From: a virus
IMG/VR virus record: IMGVR_UViG_3300024989_000002
Length of the DNA stretch: 40,339 nucleotides
Direction: 5' to 3' (one strand)
In this document: in pieces, positions 584 to 26,438 of the stretch
Numbering within the stretch: the stretch's first letter is position 1
How the letters are laid out: each line of letters starts with the position of its first letter
The notes under the pieces: model-generated
Seen by the model: the letters and a program-made list of their open reading frames with translations, nothing else
What the model was told of the DNA's origin: nothing
The model's database searches: none
Translations under genes and position numbers: made by a program

Positions 584-690
584 GTGGCTCACATTATCGC
601 CATATTGGATCATTTGAAAATCCGAATAGGGCACGAAGCCAACTTGACGTGATCCATTTGGGCAACTAGATTTGCTGCATGGATCACTCA
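584..690. promoter_or_regulatory. Divergent immunity-switch promoters with repeated TGGATCA operator candidates
   Basis: Rightward promoter: TTGACG 644-649, 17-nt spacer, TAGATT 667-672, which places the transcription start at about the A of the ATG at 679 (leaderless). Leftward promoter (minus strand): GATAAT = 593-598, TTTTCA = 615-620, ATG at 583. TGGATCA occurs at 606-612 and 680-686, and as TGATCCA at 650-656. The first two copies lie inside the promoter spacers and are each followed by TTTG. This is the lowest-GC stretch of the window. Confidence 0.55.
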
Positions 691-2310: not shown

Positions 2311-2411
2311 CCGATATCGCCCCGTTCATCGGGATCAGCGTGTTCGTCACCGTCCTCGTGGTGAGCGCCTGGGTCCTCGACCTTCGCCAGGACGAGAGGG
2401 ACCACCGATGA
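2307..2411 (+). CDS. Tiny membrane peptide, 34 aa (below the track cutoff)
   Basis: The GTG overlaps the upstream TGA and the stop overlaps the next ATG (ATGA). The product VTDIAPFIGISVFVTVLVVSAWVLDLRQDERDHR is one TM helix plus a charged tail. GC3 is high. Confidence 0.5.
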   Translation: MTDIAPFIGISVFVTVLVVSAWVLDLRQDERDHR

Positions 2412-2560
2412 CCTCACTGATCCTCCTGCTGGCCGGGATGCTCCTTCTTCCATTCGCGATCGGCGACCGCCCCCTCAACGGCCTCGACCTGATCACTCTC
2501 CTCCTCTTCATCGCTGCGGGACTCGCCCGCGCGACCACCAGACGAAAGGCACAACGATGA
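2408..2560 (+). CDS. Small membrane protein, 50 aa
   Basis: ATG preceded by GAGAGGGA. The product MTSLILLLAGMLLLPFAIGDRPLNGLDLITLLLFIAAGLARATTRRKAQR has two hydrophobic segments. Confidence 0.6.
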   Translation: MTSLILLLAGMLLLPFAIGDRPLNGLDLITLLLFIAAGLARATTRRKAQR

Positions 2561-3816
2561 CCATCCCCGCCATCAAGGGGTTCAACCCCGACCTGACTTG
2601 CCGCGGATTCCAGTTCGCGGAAGGGAAGTCGTTCACGCACGACGGGCCGGTCCGCGTGTGCAGCTCCGGGTTCCACGCGGTGACGATGCCGCTGGATGTT
2701 CTCCGCTACTACCCGCCGAACAAGTCCGTCTACCACCAGGTCGAACTCGAAGACGTGCAGACCCACTCGGAGGACTCTAAGGTCGCGGGCAAGACGATCC
2801 GCATCGGTGCGCGGATCGAGTTGCCCGCGTTGATCAAGGCGCAGATCGAGTTCGTCTTCAAGAACTCGAAGAAGGTCGACGGCGCTTCGTCGACGGAGGC
2901 GCGCACTCAGGTCGGCACTGACATCGAGCACGGTGCGGCGACGGTGTCCGGGTACTCCGGTGCGGCGACGGCGTCCGGGGACTACGGTGCGGCGACGGCG
3001 TCCGGGCGCTACGGTGCGGCGACGGCGTCCGGGTACTCCGGTGCGGCGACGGTGTCCGGGGAGCACGGTGCGGCGACGGCGTCCGGGGAGCACGGTGCGG
3101 CGACGGCGTCCGGGGAGCACGGTGCGGCGACGGCGTCCGGGGACTACGGTGCGGCGACGGCGTCCGGGCGCTACGGTGCGGCGACGGCGTCCGGGTACTC
3201 CGGTGCGGCGACGGCGTCCGGGGACTCCGGTGCGGCGACGGCGTCCGGGTACTACGGTGCGGCGACGGCGTCCGGGTACTACGGTGCGGCGACGGCGTCC
3301 GGGGACTCCGGTGCGGCGACGGCGTCCGGGTACTCCGGTGCGGCGACGGCGTCCGGGGACTACGGTGCGGCGACGGCGTCCGGGTACTACGGTGCGGCGA
3401 CGGCGTCCGGGGACTCCGGTGCGGCGACGGCGTCCGGGGACTCCGGTGCGGCGACGGCGTCCGGGTACTACGGTGCGGCGACGGCGTCCGGGCGCTACGG
3501 TGCGGCGACGGCGTCCGGGTACTACGGTGCGGCGACGGCGTCCGGGGACTACGGTGCGGCGACGGCGTCCGGGGACTCCGGTGCGGCGACGGCGTCCGGG
3601 TACTACGGTGCGGCGACGGCGTCCGGGGAGAAGTCCGTTGCCCTGGCCAGCGGCTACGACGGACGTGCGCGCGGAGCTATCGGTACCGCCCTCTTCCTCA
3701 CTGAGCGCTCGTCGGACTGGACCATCATCGCGGCGGCCGGCGTCGTCGTCGATGGTGCGGCCATCAAGGCCGACACGTGGTACTCGCTGCGTGGCGGGAA
3801 GGTCGTGGCGTCGTGA
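2557..3816 (+). CDS. Tandem-repeat protein: Cys-containing N-terminal domain + (GAATASGxx)x26 + short C-terminal domain, 419 aa
   Basis: This is the only frame with non-repeat flanks of normal composition. N-terminus: IKGFNPDLTCRGFQFAEGKSFTHDGPVRVCSSGFHAVTMPLDVLRYYPP. From memory, I believe this N-terminal module occurs in a widespread phage/prophage family of unknown function that also carries SG-rich repeats; this is not verified. ATGA coupling upstream and GTGA coupling downstream. Confidence 0.8.
   Translation: MTIPAIKGFNPDLTCRGFQFAEGKSFTHDGPVRVCSSGFHAVTMPLDVLRYYPPNKSVYHQVELEDVQTHSEDSKVAGKTIRIGARIELPALIKAQIEFVFKNSKKVDGASSTEARTQVGTDIEHGAATVSGYSGAATASGDYGAATASGRYGAATASGYSGAATVSGEHGAATASGEHGAATASGEHGAATASGDYGAATASGRYGAATASGYSGAATASGDSGAATASGYYGAATASGYYGAATASGDSGAATASGYSGAATASGDYGAATASGYYGAATASGDSGAATASGDSGAATASGYYGAATASGRYGAATASGYYGAATASGDYGAATASGDSGAATASGYYGAATASGEKSVALASGYDGRARGAIGTALFLTERSSDWTIIAAAGVVVDGAAIKADTWYSLRGGKVVAS
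2932..3633 (+). repeat. 26 head-to-tail copies of a 27-bp unit
   Basis: The backbone ggtgcggcgacggcgtccggg is identical in 24 of 26 units; two units carry one c>t change (A>V). The last 6 nt vary only among gac/tac/cgc/gag followed by tac/tcc/cac/aag. Confidence 0.97.
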
Positions 3817-5057
3817 GCAAGACCTTCTCCGTCCAGAACTTCAAGGGCGTCCGCGAGATCGAACTGAGCCCGACCGGGTCGCTGATCGTCGTCGCCGGCG
3901 CGAACGGTGCCGGGAAGTCGAGCTTCATCGACGCGTTCGTCGAGCTGTTCGACCCGAAGGGCACCCGCCTGACCCCGAAGCCGATCCGTGAGGGCGAGGA
4001 CGAGGCCCGCGCGGAGTACACCGACACGGACCTCGGTGTCCGCATCGTCCGCACCTGGAAGAAGAACGACGCGGGACGCCTCGAGGTGTTCGCGCTCGAC
4101 GGCGCGAAGTACTCGAAGCCCGCCGACGTCGTCGCGTCGCTCACGGGCGGCTTGATCTTCGACCCGGTCGCGTTCCTGAACCTCGACGAGAAGCGACAGC
4201 GGGACGCGCTCCTCGCGAAGGTCGACCTCCCGTTCGACGTCGACGCGTTGGCGCGGGAGAAGGCTGGTGCGGAGGAGCGCCGCCTGATCGCTGGCCGTGA
4301 CGTGAAACGCCTGCAGGGTGCCCTGTCGGCGATGCCGAACCCGCTGGACGCGCCGAACGAGGAGGTGTCGGGCGCCGCGGTCCTCGCCGAAATCGAGTCC
4401 GTGCAGGAGCACAACCACCGCATCGACCGGGCCGAGGATCTCGTCACCGAACTCGGACGTCAGGTCCTCGACACCGACCGCACGATCGAGCGCTTGGAGG
4501 AGCAGATCACTCAGGCGCGCGCGGACCGCGCCGTCTGGGTCGAGAGGATCGAGGTGGCCCAGCGCGCTGCCGCTGCTCCGCGCGCGGATCTCGCGCCGTT
4601 GCAGGCAAAGCTCGCGGCCGTCGACGAATGGAACGCGGCCGTGCGAGCGCGTCGCGAGTATGCGAAGGTCGCCGACGAGTGCGCCGCCGCGGAGTCCGCT
4701 CAGGCCGCCGCGAACCGCGACCTCGCCTCGATCGAGAAGCGCAAGCGTGACGGCCTCGCAGCGGCGACGTTCCCCGTCGACGGGCTGTCCGTGGACGAGG
4801 ACGGCGTGACGTTCGACGGCGTGCCGTTCACGCAGGTCAACTCGGCCATGCGTCGCCGCGTCGCGTTCGCGATCGCGACCGCGGGAGACCCGAAGCTGCG
4901 TCTCGTCATCGTGAAGGACGGTGACCTGTTGGACGCCGACTCCCTCGCCGCGATCCGGGATCTCGCCGACGAGCGCGGATACACCGTGCTCGTCGAGCGG
5001 GACCGTGACGAGTCCCGCCGGATCGGCTTCACGATCCAGGACGGCGCTCTCGCATGA
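3813..5057 (+). CDS. SMC/RecF-like AAA ATPase with a central coiled coil, 414 aa
   Basis: Walker A GANGAGKSS near the N-terminus, a long Ala/Glu/Arg-rich helical middle, and a C-terminal LRLVIVKDGDLLD (Walker-B-like). The GTG at 3813 overlaps the upstream TGA. Confidence 0.8.
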   Translation: MSKTFSVQNFKGVREIELSPTGSLIVVAGANGAGKSSFIDAFVELFDPKGTRLTPKPIREGEDEARAEYTDTDLGVRIVRTWKKNDAGRLEVFALDGAKYSKPADVVASLTGGLIFDPVAFLNLDEKRQRDALLAKVDLPFDVDALAREKAGAEERRLIAGRDVKRLQGALSAMPNPLDAPNEEVSGAAVLAEIESVQEHNHRIDRAEDLVTELGRQVLDTDRTIERLEEQITQARADRAVWVERIEVAQRAAAAPRADLAPLQAKLAAVDEWNAAVRARREYAKVADECAAAESAQAAANRDLASIEKRKRDGLAAATFPVDGLSVDEDGVTFDGVPFTQVNSAMRRRVAFAIATAGDPKLRLVIVKDGDLLDADSLAAIRDLADERGYTVLVERDRDESRRIGFTIQDGALA

Positions 5058-5323
5058 CCGCGCGCATCGACCATGCCTCCGAAGCGCTGAAGGCTCTCGG
5101 CCACATCACGGGAGTCGATGAGGCCACGAACCAGATCACGCTTGCGCTCGAAGCGCAGGTGCACGCGACTCTCGCTCTTGTCGAGCAGCAGCGCCTCGCC
5201 AACCTCATCGCGTTCCACGATGTCGCGACGCGTCAGGCGGACGCGGGCCACATCCTGAGCAGCGACGGCCTTGCCCGAGTCGAGCGTGCGGCGCGGGAGC
5301 TCCGGGCGGGGGTCGGACTGTGA
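5054..5323 (+). CDS. Hypothetical protein, 89 aa
   Basis: ATGA overlap upstream, GTGA overlap downstream; helical composition. Confidence 0.6.
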   Translation: MTARIDHASEALKALGHITGVDEATNQITLALEAQVHATLALVEQQRLANLIAFHDVATRQADAGHILSSDGLARVERAARELRAGVGL

Positions 5324-5937
5324 GCGCCCTCGCGATCCTGGATCGCACCCTCGCGGACTCTGCCGACCGCGAATCTTGGCTGGACGCGCACGACAAGGTC
5401 ATCGGCTCATCGACGGCGGGGAAGTTTGCGAAGCCGGGATCTGTGGAGCTCTACGTCCGGCAGATCCTCGAACCCCGCACGTTCGGCGGGAACGAGGCGA
5501 CCCGGTCGGGCAACGACTGGGAGCCCGCGCTGCTCGGCGCGGTCGGGGCGCGTCCGAACAGCCTGCTGATCCACCACCCCGACTATCCCCGGTTCGGCGC
5601 GACGATCGACGGCACGAAGCCGGTCGGCGACCGTTTCGCGATCGTCGAGACGAAGACGAAGCACAACAAGGTCGTGACCGGGCCGACACCGTACGAGGTC
5701 CGGCAGCTCGCGTGGCAGTTCTACTGCATCCCCGAAGCCGTCCACGCGGAGTGGGTGTGGGGCGAGCTCGTCCGCGACCCCGACGCGCCAGGACTGTGGC
5801 GGCTGCGCCGCCCCGTGCAGTCGCGCACGTTCCACCGCGACCACCCACAGATCATCGCCGCGACGGACCTGATCGTCCCCATCGCGCACCGCGTCGTCGA
5901 GCTGCTCGACGCCGCCCGAGAGGAGGCATGGACATGA
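5320..5937 (+). CDS. YqaJ/lambda-Exo-like recombination exonuclease (PD-(D/E)XK), 205 aa
   Basis: GSSTAGKF near the N-terminus, then ATIDG ... FAIVETKTK (the D...E-x-K nuclease motif). It lies directly upstream of an ERF annealase. Confidence 0.75.
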   Translation: MSALAILDRTLADSADRESWLDAHDKVIGSSTAGKFAKPGSVELYVRQILEPRTFGGNEATRSGNDWEPALLGAVGARPNSLLIHHPDYPRFGATIDGTKPVGDRFAIVETKTKHNKVVTGPTPYEVRQLAWQFYCIPEAVHAEWVWGELVRDPDAPGLWRLRRPVQSRTFHRDHPQIIAATDLIVPIAHRVVELLDAAREEAWT

Positions 5938-6584
5938 CCAACCCCACCCCGCCCGCGACCCTCACCGAGGCGCTCAGCGCCTTCCAGGCCGAACTGCCCC
6001 GCGTGCAGAAGGGTGCACGCAACGACCACTTCAAGTCGTCGTACGCGGACCTCGCCGACGTCGTCGGCGTCGTCCTCCCCGCGCTCGCCCGCCAGGGCCT
6101 CGCCTGGGTGACCGTTCCGACGATGACGGAGGCCGGGTTCCGGCTCGAGTACAGCCTGCAGCACGTCGGCGGGGAACGGATCGACGGCTCCTGGCCGCTC
6201 CCGAATCCGACCGAGAGCACTGCACAGGCGGTCGGGTCCGCGATCACGTACGCGAAGCGCTACGCGCTGTCCGCGGTCACCGGCGTCGCTCCCGATCAGG
6301 ACGACGACGGAAACAGCGCATCCCAGCAGGGAGCACCCGCCGCCGCGCCGAAGGAGTGGAAGAAGCAGGTCGCGGCCGCCGCGTCCGTCGCGGAGCTGCA
6401 CGAGATCTACCAGTCCGCGGAGCGCGACGGATGGCTGAACGCATCGATCATCGCGAGCCTGAACGCCCGCCGTGCCGTGCTGAGCACCCCGGCCGCGCCG
6501 GACGCCGCCGACGCGTACGAAGCGGCGGCATCGGCGGAGTACGACGCCGCGGTCGCGCGTGGGGAGGTGGCCGGTCGTGTCTGA
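5934..6584 (+). CDS. ERF-family single-strand annealing protein, 216 aa
   Basis: LSAFQAELPRVQKGARNDHFKSSYADLADVV...GSAITYAKRYALSAVTG matches the ERF pattern as I recall it. AGGAGG lies 7 nt upstream of the ATG at 5934. ATGA overlap with the exonuclease gene. Confidence 0.75.
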   Translation: MTNPTPPATLTEALSAFQAELPRVQKGARNDHFKSSYADLADVVGVVLPALARQGLAWVTVPTMTEAGFRLEYSLQHVGGERIDGSWPLPNPTESTAQAVGSAITYAKRYALSAVTGVAPDQDDDGNSASQQGAPAAAPKEWKKQVAAAASVAELHEIYQSAERDGWLNASIIASLNARRAVLSTPAAPDAADAYEAAASAEYDAAVARGEVAGRV

Positions 6585-8513: not shown

Positions 8514-8963
8514 GTGAGCATTCCCATGATGCCCCCTCAGGCATCCCCCACACCCTTCCGCGGCGTCGCGTTCATCGTCCGCGGCACCCCAGCCCCGCAG
8601 GGCTCGAAGCATGCGTACGTCGTCGGCAACCGCGCCCGTGTCGTCGAAGACAGCAAGATGTCCGCCCCGTGGCGGGACAGCGTCGCCGCGGCCGCCGCGG
8701 ACGCGATGAACGGTGCGTCCCCGATCGACGTACCCGTGACCGTCACCATCACCTTCTTCTTCGCCCGCCCCCAGTCGGTGAAGCGCCCGCTGCCGTCAGT
8801 GCGACCCGACATCGACAAGCTCGCCCGAGCGGTGCTCGACGGCCTCACCGCCGGCGGCGTGTACACCGACGACTCCCGCGTCGTCGACCTCCACGCGAAG
8901 AAGCGCTACCGGGACGTCCCGGGCGCCGAGGTCACCGTGACTGCCGCGGAGGTGGCTTCTTGA
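8514..8963 (+). CDS. rusA: RusA-family Holliday junction resolvase, 149 aa
   Basis: FIVRGTPAPQGSKH ... RPDIDKLARAVLDGLTAGGVYTDDSRVV matches the RusA Asp-rich motif. GTG start after AGGAG. Confidence 0.8.
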   Translation: MSIPMMPPQASPTPFRGVAFIVRGTPAPQGSKHAYVVGNRARVVEDSKMSAPWRDSVAAAAADAMNGASPIDVPVTVTITFFFARPQSVKRPLPSVRPDIDKLARAVLDGLTAGGVYTDDSRVVDLHAKKRYRDVPGAEVTVTAAEVAS

Positions 8964-9439
8964 CGACCCTGTATGTCGCGGGTCCCATGACCGGCCTTCC
9001 CGACTTCAACTATCCAGCCTTCCGTGCCGCTGCAACCGAGCTACGGGACGCGGGATACGTCGTCGAGGACCCATCCACCAACACCAACCCGACTCCCGAC
9101 GACTACCACGGCTGGCTTCGTGCGGGGCTCGCGCAGCTCATCACCTGCGACGGCGTGGCAATTCTCGACGGATGGGAAGCATCCGGCGGGGCCCGACTGG
9201 AGGTGAACGTCGCGGCGACGCTCGGCATGAGGGTGCGCCCCGTACACGAGTGGGTCACGGAGGCGCAGGCCGATCCCGAGCGGGAGTTCCCTGACCGCCC
9301 CGAACGCGTGAAGTGCCGCGGGTGCGGCTCGTTCGACACGCACCGAATCGGTATCGGGTCGCGTCTCATCGCGATCGACGACGCCATCGATTACGAGAAC
9401 TGGCAGTGCATCGACTGCGGTCGGGAGTGGGAACGATGA
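8960..9439 (+). CDS. DUF4406-like (nucleoside 2-deoxyribosyltransferase-fold) domain fused to a C-terminal zinc ribbon, 159 aa
   Basis: LYVAGPMTGLPDFNYPAFRAAATELRDAGYVVEDP...CDGVAILDGWEASGGARLEVNVAATLG, followed by CRGCG...CIDCG. TTG start (TTGA overlap) 6 nt after GGAGGT. Confidence 0.65.
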   Translation: MTTLYVAGPMTGLPDFNYPAFRAAATELRDAGYVVEDPSTNTNPTPDDYHGWLRAGLAQLITCDGVAILDGWEASGGARLEVNVAATLGMRVRPVHEWVTEAQADPEREFPDRPERVKCRGCGSFDTHRIGIGSRLIAIDDAIDYENWQCIDCGREWER

Positions 9440-11366: not shown

Positions 11367-12083
<717 letters not shown>

Positions 12084-16482: not shown

Positions 16483-16555
16483 GCGTTCGTAGCTCAACAG
16501 GCAGAGCACCGACCTCCCACGTCGGGGGTTGCGAGTTCGAACCTCGCCGAACGCT
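16483..16555 (+). tRNA. tRNA-Gly (anticodon CCC), 73 nt, no encoded CCA
   Basis: Folded by hand. Acceptor stem GCGTTCG/CGAACGC (7 of 7 pairs). D arm GCTC-AACAGGCA-GAGC. Anticodon arm CCGAC-CTCCCAC-GTCGG with U33 and A37. Variable loop GGGTT. T arm GCGAG-TTCGAAC-CTCGC. Discriminator U. Confidence 0.9.
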
Positions 16556-16633: not shown

Positions 16634-17170
16634 ATGGCCACACGCGCCCGTCGTGCACATCGACCAGTCGAAGCCCTTACGCGCGAGAAGATCCAGGAGG
16701 CGGCTCGGGACGGCTCGCGTAGCCGTAACTCCATCGCCCGCGAGTTCAGCGTCTCAGGTGAGACGGTGACGCGGATCTGCGCGGAGGCGGGCATCACCTT
16801 CGACCGGTCGAAGACCGAAGCCGCGGTGCGGGCTCACGCGCTGGACATCGCTGCTGAGCAGCAGACGCTCCTGCGGATGATGGTCGCTGAGGTGCAGGAA
16901 GAGCTCGACCTGCTGAACGCCCCGTACCTCGTGTGGTCGTTCGGGGGCATGGATGGCGAGATCCATTCGCACCTCCTCGACGCTGCCCCAATGGACGTCC
17001 GCAACATGGCGATCCGTTCCGCGGCGACCGTCGTGGACAAGGTGGCGCGTCACCTCGGGACGACTCCGGAGGGTGCGGCCGCAGCGGAGTCGGTGCTGGA
17101 CCGTATCGAGGCGGAGTTCGACGGCGAGTTCGCCGAGGCGGACGACACCGAGTTCGGCGGCGTGGGGTGA
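16634..17170 (+). CDS. Terminase small subunit (N-terminal HTH), 178 aa
   Basis: Lies directly upstream of and is coupled (GTGA) to the large terminase gene. It has the HTH SRNSIAREFSVSGETVTRICAEAGI and an acidic C-terminus. Confidence 0.75.
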   Translation: MATRARRAHRPVEALTREKIQEAARDGSRSRNSIAREFSVSGETVTRICAEAGITFDRSKTEAAVRAHALDIAAEQQTLLRMMVAEVQEELDLLNAPYLVWSFGGMDGEIHSHLLDAAPMDVRNMAIRSAATVVDKVARHLGTTPEGAAAAESVLDRIEAEFDGEFAEADDTEFGGVG

Positions 17171-18459
17171 CTCGACCGCCGGCGCTGTCACGGAAGCAGC
17201 GGTGGAGCATCGCCCGCGCGTCGCGGCGGAAGATCGCGCTGTGGGTCGGTGCGGTGTCGGCGGGCAAGACCATGGTGTCTCTGCTCGCTCTGTTCATCGC
17301 GATCCGGCACACCAAGGGTCGCGGCCTGATCGTCATCGTCGGGAAGACGTTGCAGACGATCGAACGCAACGTCATCGGCGAGATGCAGAAGCCGGAACTG
17401 TTCGGGCGTCTCGCGAAGCAGGTGAAGCACACGACCGGGTCGAACACGGCGATCATCCTCGGCCGGGTCGTGCATCTCGTCGGCGCGAACGACGCGCGCT
17501 CTGAGGAGAAGATCCGCGGGTCGACGATCGAGCTCGCGTACGTCGATGAGGCGACGCTGGTTCCCGAGGCGTTCTGGGCGATGCTGCTGACCCGTCTGCG
17601 TGTCGCCGGCGCCCGCCTCCTCGCGACTACCAACCCTGGATCCAGTCAGCATTGGCTGCGCGTGAAGTACATCCTCGACGCGGACGCGCAGAACATGATC
17701 GTGTTCCACTTCACGATGCACGACAACCCGCTCTACTTCGAGGGCGGCGACCCGGGCCCGTCGTACATCGCCGACATGGAAGCGTCGTTCCGGAAGTCGA
17801 AGCTGTTCTTCGACCGGTTCATCCGCGGCCTGTGGACGAACGCTGAGGGCGCGATCTACGACGGTTGGGACCCGGCGGAGCACGTGATCCCGTGGGAGCA
17901 ACTCCCGCCCATGTACAGGCTCCTCGGCGTCGGCATGGACTTCGGCACCCAGCACGCCACGTCGGTGATCCTTCTCGGCCTCGGCTACGACCGGAAGCTG
18001 TACGCGATCGACGAGCTCCGCATCGAGTCGGACGCGCAGACGCACCGCCAAGCCCCATCAGTACAGGCGAAAGCGATCGCCGACTGGTTGAAGATCAACC
18101 ATCTCCCCGAGGGGTTCCTGCGACCCGAGGGGCTGTTCGCCGACCCGGCCGCGCTCGCGTACCGGCAGGAACTCCGCGAGTCGCAAGGAGTGGACACCGC
18201 CCCGGCCGACAACTCCGTCGCGTACGGCATCGGCCTCGTCGCGTCTCTCCTTGCCCGCGGCCTGCTGAAGGTCACCGACCGGTGCTGGGGCGTCATCAAG
18301 GAAGCCCCCGAGTACCGGTACGACCCGAAAGCGCAGGAACGCGGCGTCGACGAGCCCATCAAGGACCGCGATGACTCCCTCGACGCTCTCCGCTACGTGA
18401 TCGCCTCCACCGAGTACGAGTGGCGCGACGAAGTCGGCCCGAGACCACACACGTTCTGA
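17167..18459 (+). CDS. Terminase large subunit, 430 aa
   Basis: Walker A GAVSAGKT, Walker B LAYVDEAT, and nuclease-half motifs (GMDFG..., DDSLDALRY). Confidence 0.93.
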   Translation: MTRPPALSRKQRWSIARASRRKIALWVGAVSAGKTMVSLLALFIAIRHTKGRGLIVIVGKTLQTIERNVIGEMQKPELFGRLAKQVKHTTGSNTAIILGRVVHLVGANDARSEEKIRGSTIELAYVDEATLVPEAFWAMLLTRLRVAGARLLATTNPGSSQHWLRVKYILDADAQNMIVFHFTMHDNPLYFEGGDPGPSYIADMEASFRKSKLFFDRFIRGLWTNAEGAIYDGWDPAEHVIPWEQLPPMYRLLGVGMDFGTQHATSVILLGLGYDRKLYAIDELRIESDAQTHRQAPSVQAKAIADWLKINHLPEGFLRPEGLFADPAALAYRQELRESQGVDTAPADNSVAYGIGLVASLLARGLLKVTDRCWGVIKEAPEYRYDPKAQERGVDEPIKDRDDSLDALRYVIASTEYEWRDEVGPRPHTF

Positions 18460-18478
18460 CCTGGGAAGGGGGAACCTG

Positions 18479-20080
18479 ATGCCGCTCCCCGCTTCGTCCC
18501 TGACCGCACAGTGGCCGCCGAAGGTCCTCGACAACCTGCTGCCCGCGATGGCCCGGTGGGGTGCGTGGTGGGCGAACGACCTGAACCGGCTGCAGTACGT
18601 GTACGGCGGCGGGATCATGCCGGACCGGACGGGGTTCTTCGCTTCCGACACGGGCGGCATCAAGGTCCACTCGCTCGGCCCGATCCGCTGGTTCGTCGCG
18701 CAGCCCGCGATCGGTACCCGCCTGAACACGAAGCTCCCGGTCCCGATCGCTGCGGAGATCTGCCAGGCGTCCGCGGATCTGCTGTTCTCCGACCCGGTGA
18801 CGGTGACCGCGAATGACGAGGCCACGCAGGCGCGCGTCGGGGAACTGCTGGACGACGGGTTCCACTCGTCGGTCGCGGAAGCCGCGGAGATGTCGGCCGC
18901 GCTCGGCGGCGTGTACCTCCGCGTCACGTGGGACGACACCGTGAAGCCCGACGGCCCGTTCACGACCGTGAAGGACGCTGACGAAGCGATCCCCGAGTTC
19001 CGGTTCGGTGTGCTCACCGCGGTCACCTTCTGGGCTGTGGTCGCTCGCGACGGGAAGAACGTGTGGCGTCACCTGGAACGCCACGAGCTGACCGCGCTCG
19101 GGCGGGGTGTGATCCTCCACGGCCTGTACGTCGGGGACGACACGACTCTCGGCATGCGCGTCGGCCTCACCAGCCGCCCCGAGACAGCGCCTCTCGCGAT
19201 CCACGCTGACCTTTCCGCCGAGGGCACGATCGACACCCTGTCGCCGGGCCTCGCGGTCACGTACATCCCGAACCAGACCCCGAACCGGTCGTGGCGTCAC
19301 GACCCGCTCGGGCAGAACCTGGGACGCTCCGACCTCGACGGCATCGAGCACCTGATGGATCAACTGTCGGAGACGATGTCGGACTGGATGCGGGCACGCC
19401 GCGCCGCGCGCGCCCGCGTGCTGGTGTCGAAGGAGCTCGCGAAGTCCGCCGGCCCCGGTCAGGCGTCCGTGGTCGACATGGATCAGGAGACGTACGTCTC
19501 GACCGACATGAGCGGCCAGTCCGGCACGGCACCCCTGTCGATGGCGGACCGGATGAACGTGATGCAGCCCGCGTTCGACCCCGCCGGGTACAAGGCCACC
19601 GCCGACGAGCTGGTCGAGCAGATCCTGCAGATGGCGGGCTACTCGATGTCGACGTTCGGTGTGCAGGGTGAGCAGCGCGGCGACCGCACGGCGACGGAGA
19701 TCGAAGCCCGCGAACGCCGCTCCCTGATGACCCGTGCACGGAAGATTCGGATCTGGCGTCCCGCACTCGAGGCGTACATCGAGAAGCTGCTCGCCGTGGA
19801 CCGTGACTTCTTCGGCCACCCGAGCAGCGGTGAAGTGCACGTCGAGTTCTCCGATGGTGTGCAGGAGTCGCAGTTGCATCTCGCGCAGACCGTGCAGGCC
19901 CTGTACGCGTCGGAGTCCGCGTCGGTCGAGGAGCGGGTGAGCATCCTGCACCCCGACTGGGACGAGACGCAGATCAACGACGAGGTCTCGAAGATCAAGA
20001 CGGAGTTCGCGCAGACGCTGCCCGACCCGATGATGAACCCGTTCGACCAGGCGGCGTCGGGTGACCCCGCAGCCGGCTGA
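18479..20080 (+). CDS. Portal protein, 533 aa
   Basis: Size, position after terL, and an SPP1-gp6-like composition. Confidence 0.88.
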   Translation: MPLPASSLTAQWPPKVLDNLLPAMARWGAWWANDLNRLQYVYGGGIMPDRTGFFASDTGGIKVHSLGPIRWFVAQPAIGTRLNTKLPVPIAAEICQASADLLFSDPVTVTANDEATQARVGELLDDGFHSSVAEAAEMSAALGGVYLRVTWDDTVKPDGPFTTVKDADEAIPEFRFGVLTAVTFWAVVARDGKNVWRHLERHELTALGRGVILHGLYVGDDTTLGMRVGLTSRPETAPLAIHADLSAEGTIDTLSPGLAVTYIPNQTPNRSWRHDPLGQNLGRSDLDGIEHLMDQLSETMSDWMRARRAARARVLVSKELAKSAGPGQASVVDMDQETYVSTDMSGQSGTAPLSMADRMNVMQPAFDPAGYKATADELVEQILQMAGYSMSTFGVQGEQRGDRTATEIEARERRSLMTRARKIRIWRPALEAYIEKLLAVDRDFFGHPSSGEVHVEFSDGVQESQLHLAQTVQALYASESASVEERVSILHPDWDETQINDEVSKIKTEFAQTLPDPMMNPFDQAASGDPAAG

Positions 20081-21224
20081 GCCGTCGTCGGAACAGATCG
20101 CGGCAGCACTGATCGGCCTGTACGTCCTTGCCGAGCATGAGCTGCTCGCGGGAGTGTCGGCGGTGCTGCGGATGCCGTGGTCGGTGTCGCGGGACGCGTT
20201 GATCCTGACCCGCGCGCGTCTCCTCGTTCGCCAGGTGCTGACGTACCTCACGGCACGGTCCACCCCGATGCTGCAGGCGATGATCACTGCCGCGGTGGCT
20301 GAGGGCCGCCGGGACGCGGAACTCGTCCTCACCCGGGCGCACCAGGCCGGTGGCGGTGGTGGTGGGCGTGTCCCCCCGGGCCGGGATGTGACGTTCCCCG
20401 GCGGTGACCCGTTCGACCTGTCGATGCCTCACGGTGAACGCGCAGCGGCCGCGATCCGCAACGACATCGTGTCGTCCCTCGATGACGTCCGGTTCCGGAT
20501 CACCCGCCTCCCCGACGACATCTACAAGATGATCGCCCCGAACGGCGCGGTCCGGCAGGTCCTCGACAACAACGTCACCCCCGCGCAAGCGCAGGCGATG
20601 GCGTGGCGGGTGTTCGTGTCGCAGGGCATCACCGGGTTCACCGACAAGTCCGGCCGGAACTGGTCCCTGTCGGCGTACACGGAGATGGCTGTCCGCACCG
20701 CCGCGACCCGCGCGTACAACGCGTCACACCTCGCCCGCATGCAGGCCCTCGGCGTCGACTACTTCTCGGTGCCCGACACGGGGCATCCGTGCCCGTTGTG
20801 CTTCCCGTGGCAGGGGCGTGTGCTCACCGCGACCCCGGTCGCGTATCCGACGATCCCGGTCGACGCGACGATCGCGGAAGCGACCGCGGCGGGCCTGTTC
20901 CACCCGAACTGCAAGCACACGCTCATCCCCGTGTTCCCCGGGGTGACGGTGCTGCCCGAGGCCCACGTGTGGACCCCGGAGATGCAGGACGCGTACGACC
21001 TGTCGCAGAAGCAGCGTCGCCTCGAGCTGGACGTGCGGAAGGCGAAGCGGCAGCTCGAGTTCGCGGTGTCTCCGGAGACCCGCGCGGACGCGCGCGTGAA
21101 GGTGCGTGCGGGTCAGGCGAAGCTGCGCGACTTCGTCGCGACGTCCGGGTTCGCCCGCGACTACCGGCGTGAGCAGGTCGACCTGACCGACGCCCGCATC
21201 AAGCTCCCGACTCCCATCCGGTGA
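20061..21224 (+). CDS. MuF/SPP1-gp7-like head morphogenesis (minor capsid) protein, 387 aa
   Basis: Follows the portal gene. Contains GHPCPLCFPWQGRV and HPNCKHTLIP motifs. Confidence 0.8.
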   Translation: MTPQPAEPSSEQIAAALIGLYVLAEHELLAGVSAVLRMPWSVSRDALILTRARLLVRQVLTYLTARSTPMLQAMITAAVAEGRRDAELVLTRAHQAGGGGGGRVPPGRDVTFPGGDPFDLSMPHGERAAAAIRNDIVSSLDDVRFRITRLPDDIYKMIAPNGAVRQVLDNNVTPAQAQAMAWRVFVSQGITGFTDKSGRNWSLSAYTEMAVRTAATRAYNASHLARMQALGVDYFSVPDTGHPCPLCFPWQGRVLTATPVAYPTIPVDATIAEATAAGLFHPNCKHTLIPVFPGVTVLPEAHVWTPEMQDAYDLSQKQRRLELDVRKAKRQLEFAVSPETRADARVKVRAGQAKLRDFVATSGFARDYRREQVDLTDARIKLPTPIR

Positions 21225-21255
21225 GTCGGGTCATCCCCAAGCAAGGAGAACGATC

Positions 21256-21531
21256 ATGGCACTCACCGATTCTGACCTCGTCGACCACGACGACGACGCT
21301 GACCTCAAGGCCGCGTCCCAGCGAACCGACGATCGACTCAGGATCGCGTCCGACTCGCCCCCTGCACCCGATCACGCAAGGCGTCTGGCAACTCAGCAGG
21401 CCATCCGCGGCTACCTCTGGGACGCCGCGTTCGAGATCGAGGCGAATGTGCAGCCCTGCCGTGAAGCATCTCTGGCCCTCACGCACCTCGAAGAGGCGCT
21501 GATGTGGGCGGGCAAGGCCATCTTCCGCTGA
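21256..21531 (+). CDS. Small acidic hypothetical protein, 91 aa
   Basis: AAGGAG lies 7 nt upstream. The C-terminal helix is SLALTHLEEALMWAGKAIF. Confidence 0.6.
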   Translation: MALTDSDLVDHDDDADLKAASQRTDDRLRIASDSPPAPDHARRLATQQAIRGYLWDAAFEIEANVQPCREASLALTHLEEALMWAGKAIFR

Positions 21532-21680
21532 TGCCCACCCGCCAACGGAAGGCCCGGAAGCGCGCCGGCATCGCGTTCACGAAGACGCCGAAGACAGCCC
21601 CCAGCGTCCCGACACCCCCAAGCCTCGGTCTCACGTCGATGGCCGAGATCCTCGCCGGCCTCGTCATCCGCGGCCGGTAA
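21531..21680 (+). CDS. Small basic protein, 49 aa (below the track cutoff)
   Basis: TGATG overlap upstream. Product MPTRQRKARKRAGIAFTKTPKTAPSVPTPPSLGLTSMAEILAGLVIRGR. Confidence 0.4.
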   Translation: MPTRQRKARKRAGIAFTKTPKTAPSVPTPPSLGLTSMAEILAGLVIRGR

Positions 21681-21721
21681 CCATCCCCACCACGAGCCTG
21701 GCGCTCGGAAGGAGCACGACC

Positions 21722-22387
21722 ATGTTCATCAAGAAGCCGTTCCCGCTGCTGCGGTTCGTGGGCGACGCCGTCGAAGGCACGTCGACCCCGCCCGCTCCGG
21801 CTGCGCCGGCCGCGCCCGCCGAACCGGCCGCACCGCCCGCGCCCAGCGAGAAGGTCGAGGACCTCCCCGACTGGGCACAGAAGGTCATCCGCGACACCCG
21901 GAAGGAAGCGGGCGACTACCGCACCGCTGCGAAGACCGCCGCGGAGGAGGCGCAGAAGGCCCTGACGGACAAGCTCGCCGTCGCCCTCGGCCTCAAGCCG
22001 GACGCCGCGACCGACCCCGCCGCGCTCACCGCGTCGCTGACGAAGGCGCAGCAGGACGCCGTCACCTCCGCCCGCGAGCTCGCCGTGTTCAAGCAGGCCG
22101 CTGCGGCCGGCGCGGACCCGTCGAAGCTCCTCGACCGGGCTTCGTTCCTCACTTCCATCGGCGGTATCGACCCGACCGATGGTGCGGCGATCAAGGCGGC
22201 CATCGACGCCGCCGTGACCGCAGATCAGACCCTCAAGGCGACCCGGGCGGTCGGCGCGAGCACTGTCGAAACTCCCGGCGGGACCGGCGAGCAGGGACAG
22301 ATCACCGAAGCGCAGCTTGCGCAGATGACCCCCGAGCAGATCGCGGAGGCCCACGAGAAGGGCCTCCTCAAGGATCTGCTCACCTAA
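21722..22387 (+). CDS. Capsid scaffolding protein, 221 aa
   Basis: Ala/Glu/Lys-rich helical protein immediately upstream of the major capsid gene; GGAAGGAG RBS. Confidence 0.75.
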   Translation: MFIKKPFPLLRFVGDAVEGTSTPPAPAAPAAPAEPAAPPAPSEKVEDLPDWAQKVIRDTRKEAGDYRTAAKTAAEEAQKALTDKLAVALGLKPDAATDPAALTASLTKAQQDAVTSARELAVFKQAAAAGADPSKLLDRASFLTSIGGIDPTDGAAIKAAIDAAVTADQTLKATRAVGASTVETPGGTGEQGQITEAQLAQMTPEQIAEAHEKGLLKDLLT

Positions 22388-22406
22388 CCCCTGAAAGGAG
22401 AGCCTC

Positions 22407-23255
22407 GTGGCTTTCAACAAGTTCAAGCCGGAGATCTGGAGCGCCCTGCTCCTGATCGCCCTCCGGAAGTCGCTGGTGTACAGCGCCTTCACCAACCGCG
22501 ACTACGAGGGTGAGATCGCGGAGGCGGGCGACACCGTCCGCATCACCTCCGTCGGCCGCCCGACTGTCTCGAACTACGTCCCGGGAACGACCGTGATCGC
22601 GCCCGAGACCGTGGCGGACAGCCAGCGCACCCTCGTCGTCGACCAGGCGAAGTACTTTGCCTTCCAGGTCGACGACGTCGACAAGCGCCAGGCGAAGGGC
22701 GGCATCCTCGAGCAGCTCACCAACGAAGCCGCGTACGCGTTCGCCGACACGGTCGACCAGTACATCGCGTCGTTCTACACGTCGATCCAGCAGGCGAACC
22801 AGCTCGGTTCGATCTCGGTGTCGGCCGCGACCCCCGGGCAGGCGTACGACAACGTGCTGGTGCCGCTGAAGGTCAAGCTCGACAAGGCGAGCGTCGCGAC
22901 CCAGGGTCGCTCCGTCGCCGTCACGCCCGACTTCCACGGTGTCCTCCTCCGCGACCCCCGCTTCATCAAGGTCAACGAGGCTGGCACCGACCAGGGCCTC
23001 CGAAACGGTCTCGTCGGCCGCGCCGCCGGGTTCGACATCCTGCTCACGAACAACGCCCCGAACACCACGGGCAGCGAGTTCGCGACGATCGCCGGCAACG
23101 ACCGCGCGATCACCTTCGCGGATCAGATCAACAAGGTCGAGCCGTACCGGCCGCAGTCCTCGTTCTCCGACGCCGTGAAGGGCCTGCTCCTCTTCGGCGC
23201 GAAGAACGTCCGTCCCGACTCGCTGGCGAGCGCGCTCGTCACGGTCACGGCCTGA
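22407..23255 (+). CDS. Major capsid protein, 282 aa
   Basis: Position after the scaffold gene, strong RBS (GAAAGGAG) before a GTG start, and a composition typical of capsid proteins. Confidence 0.8.
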   Translation: MAFNKFKPEIWSALLLIALRKSLVYSAFTNRDYEGEIAEAGDTVRITSVGRPTVSNYVPGTTVIAPETVADSQRTLVVDQAKYFAFQVDDVDKRQAKGGILEQLTNEAAYAFADTVDQYIASFYTSIQQANQLGSISVSAATPGQAYDNVLVPLKVKLDKASVATQGRSVAVTPDFHGVLLRDPRFIKVNEAGTDQGLRNGLVGRAAGFDILLTNNAPNTTGSEFATIAGNDRAITFADQINKVEPYRPQSSFSDAVKGLLLFGAKNVRPDSLASALVTVTA

Positions 23256-23272
23256 GAAAGGAGCGCTGACAC

Positions 23273-23644
23273 ATGGCACGCGCAACTCTCACCCCCACCG
23301 CCCTCGTCCCGAACGCGGGCATCAACGACCCCGCCGGCACCGCGTCGACCGCGGGCGCAGGAAACGGCTTCACCGTCCCGTACGCGGGATCGAAGCACAT
23401 CCTCCTCCGCGTCACCAACGGCACCGGCGGATCCGGCACCGCGACCGTCCTCGCCGGTTCGCAGCCGTCGGCGATCGCGTCGGGCCAGGGCAGCCTCGCC
23501 GACACGGTCGGTGCCGGGGCGACGCGCTGGCTCGGCCCGTTCGAGTCCGCCCGGTTCCAGCAGCCGGACGGTTCCCTCGCGATCGACACGTCCGTGGTCA
23601 TGACCGTGACCGCGTTCTCGGTCGACGGCCGCTACGTGGGCTGA
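23273..23644 (+). CDS. Head-associated hypothetical protein, 123 aa
   Basis: GAAAGGAG RBS; Gly/Thr/Ala-rich beta-type composition; lies directly after the capsid gene. Confidence 0.6.
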   Translation: MARATLTPTALVPNAGINDPAGTASTAGAGNGFTVPYAGSKHILLRVTNGTGGSGTATVLAGSQPSAIASGQGSLADTVGAGATRWLGPFESARFQQPDGSLAIDTSVVMTVTAFSVDGRYVG

Positions 23645-23648
23645 TCCC

Positions 23649-23972
23649 ATGAGCGACACGTCGGCTGAGAAGCCTCACTTGTTCGTCCGTGGAGAGGGTG
23701 GGGCCATCTTCAAGATGGACCTACCCCTCCACGAGACGATCGAGGACCGTCTCACCAAGGGCCACCTCGTGCGCGTCGCGAACGCGGACGGCGACCCGTA
23801 CACCCCCGGACAGGACGGCCCGGAAACGGCCGGCCTGCCCACACAGCGACCCGCACTGAACGCGAGCAAGGCGACCTGGGTCGGCTGGGCTGTCGCGAAC
23901 GGCATGACGCCGGACGACGCCGAAGCCGCCACGAAGGACGACCTGATCGAGAAGTTCGGGATCGGGAAGTGA
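23649..23972 (+). CDS. Hypothetical head-module protein, 107 aa
   Basis: Normal composition; last gene before a hairpin. Confidence 0.55.
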   Translation: MSDTSAEKPHLFVRGEGGAIFKMDLPLHETIEDRLTKGHLVRVANADGDPYTPGQDGPETAGLPTQRPALNASKATWVGWAVANGMTPDDAEAATKDDLIEKFGIGK

Positions 23973-23979
23973 CCGCCTG

Positions 23980-24008: not shown

Positions 24009-24033
24009 TGGCACCACACGAAGGGAGCCGGTC

Positions 24034-24833: not shown

Positions 24834-24840
24834 GAGCGAC

Positions 24841-26432: not shown

Positions 26433-26438
26433 CACACC

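Follow-up and report, generated by a model that had tools for sequence, protein, structure and literature searches.

Several described systems share features with the phage protein reported here. TAL effectors are built from near-identical tandem units with two adjacent variable residues, a small alphabet and arrays reshuffled by recombination, but their units are helical hairpins of 33–35 residues with the variable pair at positions 12/13, reading one base per unit in a universal code. In the T-even gp38 adhesins, which form the virion tail-fibre tip, conserved glycine-rich motifs alternate with hypervariable segments in a polyglycine-II sandwich, the likeness being a conserved small-residue framework that displays short hypervariable segments. 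The RTX nonapeptide beta-roll (GGxGxDxUx) resembles our protein in repeating every nine residues, in having Gly in the turn and in a probable two units per turn. Hypervariable repeat proteins have also been screened computationally by Altae-Tran et al. 2020, and the passages of that paper matching a term search, in which DUF7666 is absent, describe examples such as Dictyostelium LRRs with a variable di-residue, localised hypervariation, rearranging repeats and a preference for Tyr, Asp, Asn and His very similar to the one found here, but on an LRR horseshoe fold and in other organisms (PMC10392669). Finally, T-even phages need RIIB to overcome RexAB, and the mechanism of this anti-RexAB protein is unknown (PMC10312443).

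We analysed a gene at positions 2557–3816 (+ strand) of a 40,339-nucleotide viral sequence, hereafter the window, and compared its 419-aa product with each of these. With the DUF7666/PHROG 4433 family (e.g., Salmonella phage ES18 gp53) it shares head (E 1e-28), array, cap and early location, without essential difference, and its place as a typical member is well supported, as is its tripartite build, in which a predicted flat beta-solenoid joins a small Cys/His alpha/beta head to a conserved cap. Unlike TAL effectors, the array has 9-residue predicted strands and lineage-specific alphabets, and a one-unit-per-base test was negative; unlike RTX repeats, it lacks the GGxGxD calcium consensus, a conserved Asp, a large hydrophobic core residue and a secretion signal, and the window protein had no HemolysinCabind Pfam match at E<=1. 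Whereas gp38 is a virion tip, this is an early non-structural product with a predicted beta-solenoid. T4 RIIB, also an early phage protein, has a C-terminal domain whose predicted fold is similar to our head and which shares its residue order, but that domain lies behind an HTH and a middle domain and is joined to no repeat array, whereas the DUF7666 head is N-terminal; Pfam HTH models match T4 RIIB and none match the window protein. RIIB also acts with RIIA, and no RIIA-like gene adjoins the array gene. Nor does the array match the target of a diversity-generating retroelement, as third-position G varies (GAG, AAG) and variation extends across all 26 units, and we found neither a second array copy in the window nor a reverse transcriptase among the 16 window proteins scanned.

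The array gene, its family and its neighbourhood

Tandem Repeats Finder placed a repeat at 2930–3629 of the window (period 27, 25.9 copies, 93% matches, score 1169), and in-frame cutting from 2932 yielded 26 head-to-tail 27-bp units ending at 3633 (+ strand), a count and order taken from an assembled metagenome or MAG, with the same sequence in GCA_017306455.1 (where the identical 419-aa protein is recorded) and JGI 3300024998 possibly representing one dataset. The units encode (G-A-A-T-A/V-S-G-x8-x9)26, with the variable codons as the final six bases of each. The backbone GGTGCGGCGACGGCGTCCGGG is the same in 24/26 units, the exceptions being units 1 and 5 with GCG>GTG (Ala>Val), and comparison of all 26 revealed zero synonymous differences in the backbone. 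Four codons occur at position 8 (GAC, TAC, CGC, GAG) and four at position 9 (TAC, TCC, CAC, AAG), giving D/Y/R/E followed by Y/S/H/K (YY x6, DS x5, YS x4, DY x4, RY x3, EH x3, EK x1); the run DY-RY-YS stands at units 2–4 and again at 8–10, with EH tripled at units 5–7. Around the array lie ~125 aa on the N-terminal side and ~60 aa on the C-terminal side. An earlier sequence-only reading had described the array in these same terms, including its extent, the two A>V changes, the small codon sets, the recurring runs and the flanking domains, and in-frame cutting and the unit table confirmed each of them.

Pfam DUF7666 (PF24703) matched aa 5–95 of the product at 97–100 bits against a gathering threshold of 27 (E 8.6e-28 to 8e-29; profile positions 3–95 of 95), and PHROG 4433 (phrog_4433) matched it full-length (E 7.2e-115), by the head alone (E 1.7e-40) and by the cap alone (E 3.9e-8), while NCBIfam gave no meaningful match. 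The gene had been treated as singular, which turned out to be wrong: it belongs, with nothing unusual about it, to a very large family comprising 2,949 clusters at 50% identity (E<=1e-3), found mostly in prophages and with phage and prophage members in Actinomycetota, Pseudomonadota, Bacillota, Bacteroidota and further phyla. That no function had been assigned was, in contrast, correct; only the DUF7666 and PHROG 4433 labels exist, and a literature search on DUF7666, GAATASG, phrog_4433 and ES18 gp53 found no family papers. At the level of the phage itself, megablast of GenBank returned no nearly identical phage, IMG/VR and JGI metagenome contigs held no further siblings above 67–68%, and complete E. 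coli genomes, queried with the ES18 gene and an E. coli phage homologue to check copy number in long-read assemblies, gave zero matches.

Canonical relatives follow a common plan of Cys/His head, 8- or 9-residue units with two variable residues, and conserved C-terminal cap. Their 9-residue backbones are lineage-specific (GAATASG, GASSATG, SAATNTG, SANSATG, AHAATTG, AKIGSSG, ARNASTG), always with two variable residues next, and an 8-residue variant, GAATAG+xx, also occurs; the di-residue alphabet has ~6 types per protein and differs between lineages. Four apparently 'head-only' relatives (TC7, Vibrio 1.021, fEg-Aba01, BF1-TP2) proved to be frameshifted or truncated arrays and not another architecture.

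The genomic setting of the gene is that of an early region, as the sequence-only reading had held in preferring an early operon to the tail module. An immunity switch at 353–912 comprises an HTH repressor gene (353–691, − strand) and a cro-like gene (679–912, + strand), with HTH_3 and HTH_31 matches on sibling gene calls, and a promoter scan placed promoter-like sites within it at 644–672 (+) and 620–593 (−); no promoter- or terminator-like site adjoins 2557–3816 in that scan, and the switch probably drives the operon holding the array gene. The gene start overlaps the stop of an upstream ORF (ATGA, 2557–2560, +), which spans 2408–2560 (+) in a sibling-contig gene call and encodes 50 aa with two hydrophobic helices in a simple hydropathy scan (2 TM segments), as a small membrane protein would. 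At the other end, the stop overlaps the GTG start of the next gene (GTGA, 3813–3816, +; same boundaries called in sibling contigs), an SMC/RecF/Rad50-like ATPase with P-loop head and coiled coil (3813–5057, +; Pfam AAA_29 and AAA_23, phrog_1499, NCBIfam scores far under curated cut-offs). This ATPase gene heads a recombination module that also holds an exonuclease-like gene (5320–5937) and ERF (5934–6584), while terminase, portal, head and tail genes span 16933–33879, the tail module lying ~22 kb downstream of the array gene, and an integrase gene lies at 39133–40236. The translational coupling proposed on both sides is real as far as the ATGA and GTGA overlaps go, that with the ATPase included, but the ATPase neighbour recurs in only 4 of ~80 loci compared.

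Clustering of neighbours (up to 5 per side, ~80 loci) revealed no conserved partner gene, only generic early-region genes (repressor, SSB, ERF, exonuclease, replication genes), and a small upstream membrane ORF was present in 3/77 loci having an upstream ORF. In the PL operon of ES18, the first gene past the N-like antiterminator is gp53, with a terminator annotated directly after it; homologues in Pseudomonas, Acinetobacter and Blautia phages are comparably placed, and an early-region position is shared by every annotated relative examined. We regard it as well supported that the family is an early-region (immunity, recombination, replication) accessory protein of temperate and some lytic phages.

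Unit turnover and selection on two codons

To evaluate how such arrays evolve, we compared units within and between genes. Across 49 genes, within-gene diversity was 0.28 at the variable codons and 0.023 in the backbone, where third positions had a median of 0, while gene pairs sharing a backbone peptide differed by 0.18–0.29 in backbone DNA. Among variable codon pairs in the same 49 genes, 312 differences were nonsynonymous and 7 synonymous. Because backbones are uniform within genes and divergent between them, and given the 312:7 excess, the comparison shows a family evolving by concerted evolution with diversifying selection. This had been suggested for the single array, with selection acting on two positions per unit, and it holds family-wide.

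Variation in copy number and order, which had been proposed as a check, was found in close relatives. A sibling prophage with flanks 99.7–99.8% identical carries 11 units, corresponding to window units 1–8 plus 24–26, and six P. aeruginosa phage isolates with end domains 93–100% identical have arrays of 8, 12, 13, 15, 26 and 27 units whose order differs; array lengths are uncertain in short-read assemblies, and many public contigs break inside arrays of DUF7666 type. Since near-identical phages disagree in both the number and the order of their units, an old static repeat, with fixed units and normal synonymous divergence, is excluded. Di-residues show no periodic order at lags 1–6 (identities 0.19–0.23). 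The preferred residues are Tyr, Asp, Asn, Glu, Arg, Thr and Trp at the first variable position and Ser, Tyr, Gln, Arg and Trp at the second.

The mechanism supported by this comparison begins with the identical 21-nt backbones, which serve as recombination substrates. Unequal exchange between them homogenises backbones within a gene and shuffles, deletes and duplicates units over very short evolutionary times, while mutations in the variable codons are retained only if the amino acid changes, and only into a narrow, binding-type set.

Predicted solenoid, cap and RIIB-like head

We evaluated the architecture with an AlphaFold2 model of the full protein (mean pLDDT 84). The alpha/beta head (2557–2871, +; ~aa 1–105, DUF7666 by Pfam at aa 5–95) was modelled at pLDDT 91, and is followed by a linker (2872–2931, +; ~aa 106–125) that is weakly conserved across family alignments and, having short strands at 117–121, is possibly the first irregular turn of the solenoid. 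Each array unit (pLDDT ~75–85) is predicted to form a strand of 6 residues (x9-G-A-A-T-A), of which G-A-A-T-A are all tiny, and a turn of 3 (S-G-x8), with strand lengths alternating in an 18-residue super-period over the period of 9. This alternation argues for two units per turn. The array is predicted to be a flat beta-solenoid, modelled as a monomer only, in which the variable residues x8 and x9 are predicted to be exposed and aligned as ladders on two narrow edges. A solenoid had earlier been guessed from the 9-residue period, and the model agrees, placing the variable pair at the turns. The array ends in a degenerate 27th unit (SVALASGYD) and a conserved ~60-aa C-terminal cap (3634–3813, +; phrog_27197 and the C-terminal part of phrog_4433; pLDDT 90–95), whose motif (...GxARGxxGxALxLxER...VDGxxIKADTxYxLxxGKVV) is kept from Actinobacteria to Firmicutes and Bacteroidota. 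Strong conservation across phyla extends to the outward backbone residues A2, T4 and S6, a feature for which a model of variable edges only gives no explanation. Foldseek searches of the PDB with the full model gave nothing below E 0.2 (best, the Ag43 beta-helix at E 0.2), and PDB searches by sequence gave low-complexity matches only (collagens, Spt5 C-terminal repeats, spindle fibril). The protein is presumably cytoplasmic, as it has no signal peptide.

In the head, K7, C15, C35, G38, H40 and P45 are invariant across family alignments and K75 nearly so, and both 'C-x(1,2)-G-F-[Q/H]' motifs lie within it. Cys42, present in 75% of members, covaries with His/Cys60 (79% vs 50%), which is only suggestive of a metal-ligand swap between the two sites. 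A PDB fold search with the head alone yielded no match below E 0.2, while its BFVD matches were DUF7666 proteins, RIIB, giant-virus ankyrin and DUF4116 repeat proteins, and a Rheinheimera phage protein in which a related head is fused to pentapeptide repeats; these place head relatives in lytic T4-like phages and giant viruses, and in other viruses the head-type domain is fused to pentapeptide, ankyrin or DUF4116 repeats.

Several comparisons connect the head to RIIB (Pfam PF26926 in precomputed tables). Seven RIIB-named proteins matched in BFVD (E 1e-4 to 3e-3, TM ~0.55), all as predicted structures, and key residues occur in equal order in head and RIIB (K..C..G..C-x-x-G-[FL]-H-x-C). The DUF7666 HMM found the same site in 120/120 RIIBs at 4–8 bits (reversed-sequence maximum 0.4), and the RIIB C-terminal HMM exceeded 5 bits in 65/268 DUF7666 heads, compared with 0/268 reversed and 2/804 shuffled sequences, so that scores overall (4–10 bits) were low but consistently over controls; hhalign gave a weak match (probability 5–11%, E 0.003–0.007, 33–39 columns). 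From these short motifs and predicted structures, the head is a probable distant relative of the T4 RIIB C-terminal domain.

Proposed function and competing explanations

Taken together, our best overall explanation is a DUF7666 early accessory protein whose recombining array offers a binding surface in phage-host conflict, an account that we regard as evenly poised between right and wrong. As a best guess at function, the protein would be a hypervariable binding scaffold, its variable ladders forming a surface that could be quickly re-tuned, in an arms race, toward a host or rival-phage macromolecule. The probable RIIB kinship of the head, together with early expression, makes counter-defence or host takeover the most likely direction for such a role. 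Weighing against this account are the low RIIB profile-profile statistics, the absence of PADLOC matches to defence or anti-defence models and the absence of a conserved partner among neighbouring genes. Because unit order changes so freely, an order-dependent binding site is hard to picture, and valency or composition may matter more than the sequence of units. We propose more tentatively that DUF7666 is an undescribed class of variable-specificity phage binders, defined by a 9-residue solenoid, a two-residue 'paratope' per unit, recombining units and a RIIB-like head.

The first rival, which we consider improbable though worth serious thought, is prophage defence or superinfection exclusion, with the variable solenoid sensing invading-phage proteins and the head acting as effector. 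Immune receptors typically use hypervariable repeat sensors, the predominance of prophages among family members and the terminator after the ES18 gene would suit such a role, and the ES18 gene occupies the N-cIII slot, where lambda carries sieB. The window gene, however, overlaps the genes on either side in a cro-proximal early operon and lacks a promoter-like site of its own, PADLOC defence models gave 0 families at E<=0.01 for the array protein, and the head has relatives in lytic T4-like phages and giant viruses.

Somewhat less probable is a self-assembling scaffold or polymer, in which flat Ala/Thr/Ser faces would stack, array length would set a dimension and the variable edges would be secondary. 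Silk-like beta-sheets of small residues pack well, the outward backbone is as conserved as the inward across phyla (1,452/1,515 units are GAATASG in members of that type), and unit number varies freely. Yet polymerisation leaves the nonsynonymous excess and the binding-type composition unexplained, the di-residues lack periodic order, and neither a bactofilin-like nor any other polymer fold was matched.

We find doubtful the possibility of a targeted enzyme, in which a catalytic Cys/His head (a thiol enzyme or ADP-ribosyltransferase-like) would merely be delivered by the solenoid. The invariance of K7, C15, C35 and H40, with K75 nearly so, fits a catalytic site, and Foldseek returned weak matches to the ADP-ribosyltransferase domains of ExoS and diphtheria toxin, and one GenBank annotation is based on an HHpred match to the rifampin ADP-ribosyltransferase Arr. 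These Foldseek probabilities were only 0.10 (ExoS, TM 0.35) and 0.06 (diphtheria toxin), no Pfam ART family matched at E<=1, no H-Y-E or R-S-E spacing fits the alignment as read by eye, and Cys/Cys/His plus Cys42 (or His/Cys60) looks more like a structural metal site.

A nucleic-acid reader with a TALE- or PUF-like code of one base per di-residue is very unlikely, even though each unit has two adjacent variable residues from an alphabet of ~6 types per protein, and Tyr, Arg, Trp, Gln, Asn, Asp and Ser read bases in PUF and TALE proteins. Alphabets are lineage-specific and order and number change between near-identical phages; the best one-unit-per-base match to the phage's own genome was 22/26, versus 21–23 for shuffled arrays, and the inferred solenoid rise of ~4.8 A per turn mismatches nucleotide spacing. 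The evidence leaves still less room for a DNA mimic or decoy that would block restriction enzymes or other DNA-binding host proteins in the manner of pentapeptide-repeat proteins, Ocr or ArdA. The window copy is acidic (array net charge -9, pI 5.5), and the Rheinheimera head-pentapeptide fusion and early expression would suit anti-restriction, but 102 members average -0.14 array charge per unit with pI 4.8–9.3 (mean 6.55), and Arg and Trp are abundant in many arrays; as the family is not acidic, the nucleic-acid decoy that the sequence-only reading had listed as a candidate is unlikely. Least probable of all is a virion fibre or collagen-like structural protein, since the Pfam Collagen match (PF01391, 50 bits vs cut-off 27.2) is compositional, the several PHROG tail-fibre families (E 1e-9 to 1e-11) match only the low-complexity array, NCBIfam collagen-like adhesin models match weakly and far under curated cut-offs, the triplets G-A-A, T-A-S and G-x-x leave one in three without Gly, which makes a collagen helix impossible, AlphaFold2 gives beta-strands, the gene sits in the early operon well away from the tail module, and the confident structural match to a fibre or collagen that had been named as counter-evidence was absent from the PDB fold search.

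What the array pattern means, then, is best seen at the level of the family: a very large group of phage proteins, encoded beside the immunity switch and named only by a DUF number, carries a rare evolutionary pattern of DNA-identical repeats with two diverging codons per unit. In TAL effectors and variable LRR receptors, where the same pattern has been studied, the surface that it marks is the one that sets specificity, and here the pattern raises a question of phage-host conflict, namely what the ladders bind. In practice, DUF7666 arrays break short-read assemblies and draw false annotations as 'collagen', 'tail fibre', 'C-type lectin' and 'CRISPR spacer'. The probable kinship of head and RIIB could inform how the rII proteins act, an open matter since Benzer's rII work. 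If the proposed binder class is true, the C-terminal domain of RIIB would for the first time be set within a family, the scaffold might be engineerable as a very small repeat binder, and a single modular specificity generator against host immunity or rival phages would be common to phages across most bacterial phyla.

Family membership and the repeat array

The gene under study (2557..3816, plus strand, by ORF calling) encodes a 419-aa product and is a regular member of a family that is catalogued but uncharacterised, with Pfam DUF7666 matching residues 5-95 (E 8e-29) and PHROG 4433 (unknown function) matching the whole protein (E 7e-115). A word-indexed search found >2,500 relatives, and an exhaustive phmmer search with the N-terminal head only (about residues 1-105) yielded 2,949 clusters (50% identity) at E<=1e-3, of which 1,194 reached E<=1e-10. 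Isolated phages that carry a relative include those of Salmonella (ES18 gp53), Pseudomonas, Ralstonia, Vibrio, Acinetobacter, Blautia, Bacteroides and Pseudanabaena, and prophages of many phyla carry relatives too. Every canonical member combines the head with a repeat array and a ~60-aa conserved C-terminal cap; ‘head-only’ members were rejected as a separate architecture, their arrays being frameshifted or truncated. In the 120 nearest relatives the backbone is GAATASG in 1,452 of the 1,515 units, and proteins carry about six types of variable di-residue each. In more distant lineages the backbone differs (GASSATG, SAATNTG, SANSATG, AHAATTG, AKIGSSG, ARNASTG, GASTNSG, or an 8-residue unit, GAATAG+xx), with two variable residues after the backbone glycine in every type.

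Within the gene, Tandem Repeats Finder reported a single array at 2930-3629 (period 27, 25.9 copies, 93% matches, score 1169), and in-frame cutting from 2932 gave 26 units, the last ending at 3633, in agreement with the sequence-only reading of 26 head-to-tail 27-bp units at 2932-3633. Reading unit by unit, we found the 21-nt backbone to be GGTGCGGCGACGGCGTCCGGG in 24 of the 26 units and GGTGCGGCGACGGTGTCCGGG, an Ala to Val change, in units 1 and 5, with no synonymous change at any backbone codon across the 26. Codon 8 is GAC, TAC, CGC or GAG (D/Y/R/E) and codon 9 is TAC, TCC, CAC or AAG (Y/S/H/K), giving YY (6), DS (5), YS (4), DY (4), RY (3), EH (3) and EK (1); DY-RY-YS is seen twice, EH stands three consecutive times, and all four D/Y by S/Y combinations are present though the two variable bases lie only four nucleotides apart. 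The sequence-only reading had described this invariant backbone, the restriction of other variation to two codons with small sets, and this unit order, and all of its sequence statements proved correct. Long alternative-frame ORFs through the array, at 2933-3991 (plus strand, 352 aa of RRRRPGTxV repeats) and 2347-3120 (minus strand, 257 aa), are by-products of the GC-rich repeat, and these frames cannot be conserved because relatives encode the same backbone with other codons.

Because the array breaks short-read assemblies, database unit counts are unreliable and short-read counts need confirmation. Many public contigs end or begin within the array, among them compared loci L009, L012, L022, L027, L035, L038, L100, L101 and others, and several ‘complete’ Ralstonia and Pseudomonas phage records (H2-H5, H12-H20) also start or stop there. 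Frameshifts within the array, with out-of-frame repeat as the remainder, were found in Pseudomonas phage TC7 (L087), Acinetobacter phage fEg-Aba01 (L089), relative P0365 and Salmonella phage Emek (H50), and could reflect sequencing error, pseudogenes or on/off switching. Family labels can also mislead, among them ‘CRISPR_spacer’ features on the array, ‘C-type lectin precursor’, ‘Collagen triple helix repeat’ and ‘putative ADP-ribosyltransferase’ (derived from an HHpred match to Arr); mislabelled records are those of Vibrio phage 1.185.O (H26), Salmonella phage SEN22 and Bacteroides phage BF1-TP2 (H8, L090), Acinetobacter phages (L089) and B. pseudomallei P0074.

Genomic setting of the gene

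The window comprises a complete temperate prophage of siphovirus type; an identical sequence is embedded in a 564-kb contig of GCA_017306455.1, and it is therefore integrated. A divergent HTH repressor/cro-like pair (353-912, ORF calling), with promoter-like sites in this region (593-672, promoter scan), is followed by a long plus-strand early operon, in which a recombination module (3813-6584) comes after the gene under study. Upstream, a 50-aa ORF with two hydrophobic helices (2408-2560, plus strand), present in sibling contigs, overlaps the gene start; the overlaps claimed earlier, ATGA at 2557-2560 and GTGA at 3813-3816, are both present in the sequence. Directly downstream lies an SMC/RecF-like ATPase with a coiled coil (phrog_1499, 3813-5057), the module also holding an 89-aa ORF, an exonuclease-like gene with a weak lambda-exonuclease-family match (5320-5937) and ERF (5934-6584). 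Further downstream are YfdP, DUF4406 (~8960-9439) and N6/N4 DNA methyltransferase (from ~9436) genes, the latter two with coordinates mapped from gene calls of L084, the sibling locus. A tRNA gene (16483-16555, plus strand; Rfam RF00005, 64.8 bits) sits just upstream of the terminase gene (16933), which is followed by portal, major head protein (22407), tail genes (25680-33879) and a minus-strand integrase (39133-40236). Short tandem repeats elsewhere (Tandem Repeats Finder) are (CAACAG)x5.8 at 11951-11985, (CCGGCCGCG)x6.2 at 21788-21843 in the head-gene region, and two copies of a 33-bp unit at 32607-32671 in the tail region. Since the window scan placed no promoter-like or terminator-like site beside the gene, the simplest reading is that it belongs to the early transcript.

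Comparison with relatives shows the same early-region placement, as judged from gene order. In the PL operon of ES18, gp53 directly follows the N-like antiterminator and precedes cIII, kil, erf and abc2; in Pseudomonas and Acinetobacter phages the gene lies just downstream of the repressor region, and in Blautia phage Montmirail it is surrounded by replication genes. Clustering the neighbours at ~80 loci returned generic early genes (repressor, SSB, ERF, Sak4-like ATPase, exonuclease, replication genes, DUF4406) and no constant partner, so the protein probably acts on its own; the window's SMC-like ATPase recurs in 4 of the ~80 loci and the small upstream membrane ORF in 3 of 77. DUF4406-like genes recur near DUF7666 genes of other phages.

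Unit turnover and predicted fold

From DNA comparison of the units of 49 genes, we found a within-gene mean pairwise diversity of 0.28 at the two variable codons and 0.023 (median 0.011) in the backbone, with a median of 0 at backbone third codon positions. Genes with exactly the same backbone peptide differ from one another at 18-29% of backbone bases (e.g., GGTGCGGCGACGGCGTCCGGG in the window versus GGTGCCGCGACGGCCAGCGGG in Microbacterium jejuense versus GGCGCTGCCACCGCATCGGGC in Mesorhizobium), which rules out codon constraint as the cause of within-gene uniformity, and we interpret the backbones as undergoing homogenisation, that is, concerted evolution. At the variable codons, distinct codon pairs were nonsynonymous in 312 cases and synonymous in 7. 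The residue set is narrow, with Tyr (29%), Asp (28%), Asn (10%), Glu (8%), Arg, Thr and Trp (6% each) at the first position, Ser (30%), Tyr (19%), Gln (17%), Arg (16%) and Trp (9%) at the second, and aliphatic residues, Lys and Pro nearly missing; most types are separated by one base (GAC/TAC/AAC/CAC; TCC/TAC; CAG/CGG/TGG). Sequence comparison thus shows diversifying, binding-type selection on two residues per unit.

The same kind of comparison shows units being gained, lost and reshuffled rapidly. A sibling prophage from another metagenome, with flanks 99.7-99.8% identical over >9 kb, carries 11 units that are exactly window units 1-8 and 24-26, so that a single exchange between the two DY units separates the arrays, apart from one Val/Ala difference. 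Six phages of P. aeruginosa, isolated in different countries, share 93-100% identity in head and cap, and hold 8, 12, 13, 15, 26 and 27 units in differing orders with a shared alphabet (YQ, DY, NR, DR); in two of them the end domains are 100% identical and the arrays still differ. Phage single-strand annealing proteins work on short homologies, and because of this the downstream recombination module could, speculatively, itself promote shuffling of the 21-nt backbones.

Modelling with AlphaFold2 from a 69-sequence alignment (mean pLDDT 84; head 91-97, array 74-85, cap 90-95) predicted a beta-solenoid with variable pairs exposed at turns, each unit contributing a 6-residue strand (x9-G-A-A-T-A) and a 3-residue turn (S-G-x8). 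Because strand lengths alternate, 6/7 at first and 4/6 later, over a period of 18 residues, we read one solenoid turn as two units, which would give a flat, two-faced coil of ~13 turns with tiny residues in the core, Ala/Thr/Ser on the faces and variable pairs at two edges. Foldseek against the PDB gave no convincing match, the best being the Ag43 beta-helix (E 0.2) and then polysaccharide-lyase beta-helices.

The head domain and possible roles

The head modelled alone (pLDDT 91) had no PDB fold match by Foldseek. Among predicted viral structures (BFVD) it matched DUF7666 proteins, a Rheinheimera phage ‘pentapeptide’ protein, many giant-virus ankyrin-repeat/DUF4116 proteins (Mimivirus, Moumouvirus, Megavirus, Marseillevirus, Tupanvirus) and seven proteins named RIIB (E 1e-4 to 3e-3, TM ~0.55). 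Since a DUF7666-like fold is predicted in giant-virus repeat proteins and a phage pentapeptide-repeat protein, these models suggest that a head plus repeat array is a general design across very different viruses. In T4 RIIB, residues ~205-312 hold the key residues of DUF7666 in the same order (W-K...D-C...G...T-C-S-R-G-L-H-V-C versus Y-K-G-F...C-R-G...G...C-x-S-G-F-H-A-C). Profile-profile scores were weak (probability 5-11%, E 0.003-0.007), and the weak HMM signal was consistent in both directions: the DUF7666 HMM scored 4-8 bits at the shared-motif site in all of 120 RIIBs (maximum 0.4 on reversed sequences; 1 of 600 shuffled at 7.3), and the RIIB C-terminal HMM exceeded 5 bits on 65 of 268 DUF7666 heads versus none of the 268 reversed sequences and 2 of 804 shuffled ones. 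Distant homology of head and RIIB is probable. Cys15, Cys35 and His40 are invariant and, with Cys42 (75% of members) or otherwise His/Cys at position 60, look like a metal site, the covariation of Cys42 with His/Cys60 being suggestive. T-even growth on RexAB-carrying hosts requires RIIB, and CARD/gasdermin systems are also triggered by it (PMC10312443).

We hold the structural and evolutionary description of the array with high confidence. The protein has no signal peptide. As to its role, a prophage defence sensor appears unlikely, and a self-assembling scaffold built on conserved faces slightly less likely; the outward-facing A/T/S backbone residues are likewise conserved between phyla, which binding at the edges leaves unexplained. 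A targeted enzyme is less probable again. A nucleic-acid reader seems improbable, with a negative self-target test and a unit order too unstable for reading, and a DNA mimic very improbable in a family that is not acidic. Least credible is a virion fibre or collagen, the Pfam Collagen (50 bits) and PHROG tail-fibre matches being compositional, with every third triplet lacking glycine and an all-beta-strand model.

Full-text searches for DUF7666, GAATASG, phrog_4433 and ES18 gp53 found no relevant literature. The nearest published concept is a computational survey of hypervariable repeat proteins (PMC10392669), whose passages returned by term search describe LRR proteins with a variable di-residue very similar in composition to the DUF7666 pair and do not mention this family. 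We class the protein as a putative hypervariable tandem-repeat binder, unusual in its predicted minimal fold and phage early operon location. That unit reordering is freely tolerated, yet residue type strictly selected, is left unexplained by the role we favour over those alternatives, in which the variable ladders would form a binding surface quickly re-tuned as phage and host, or rival phages, contend; its direction, to which the RIIB-like head and presumed early expression would point, is counter-defence or host takeover, held with less than even confidence.
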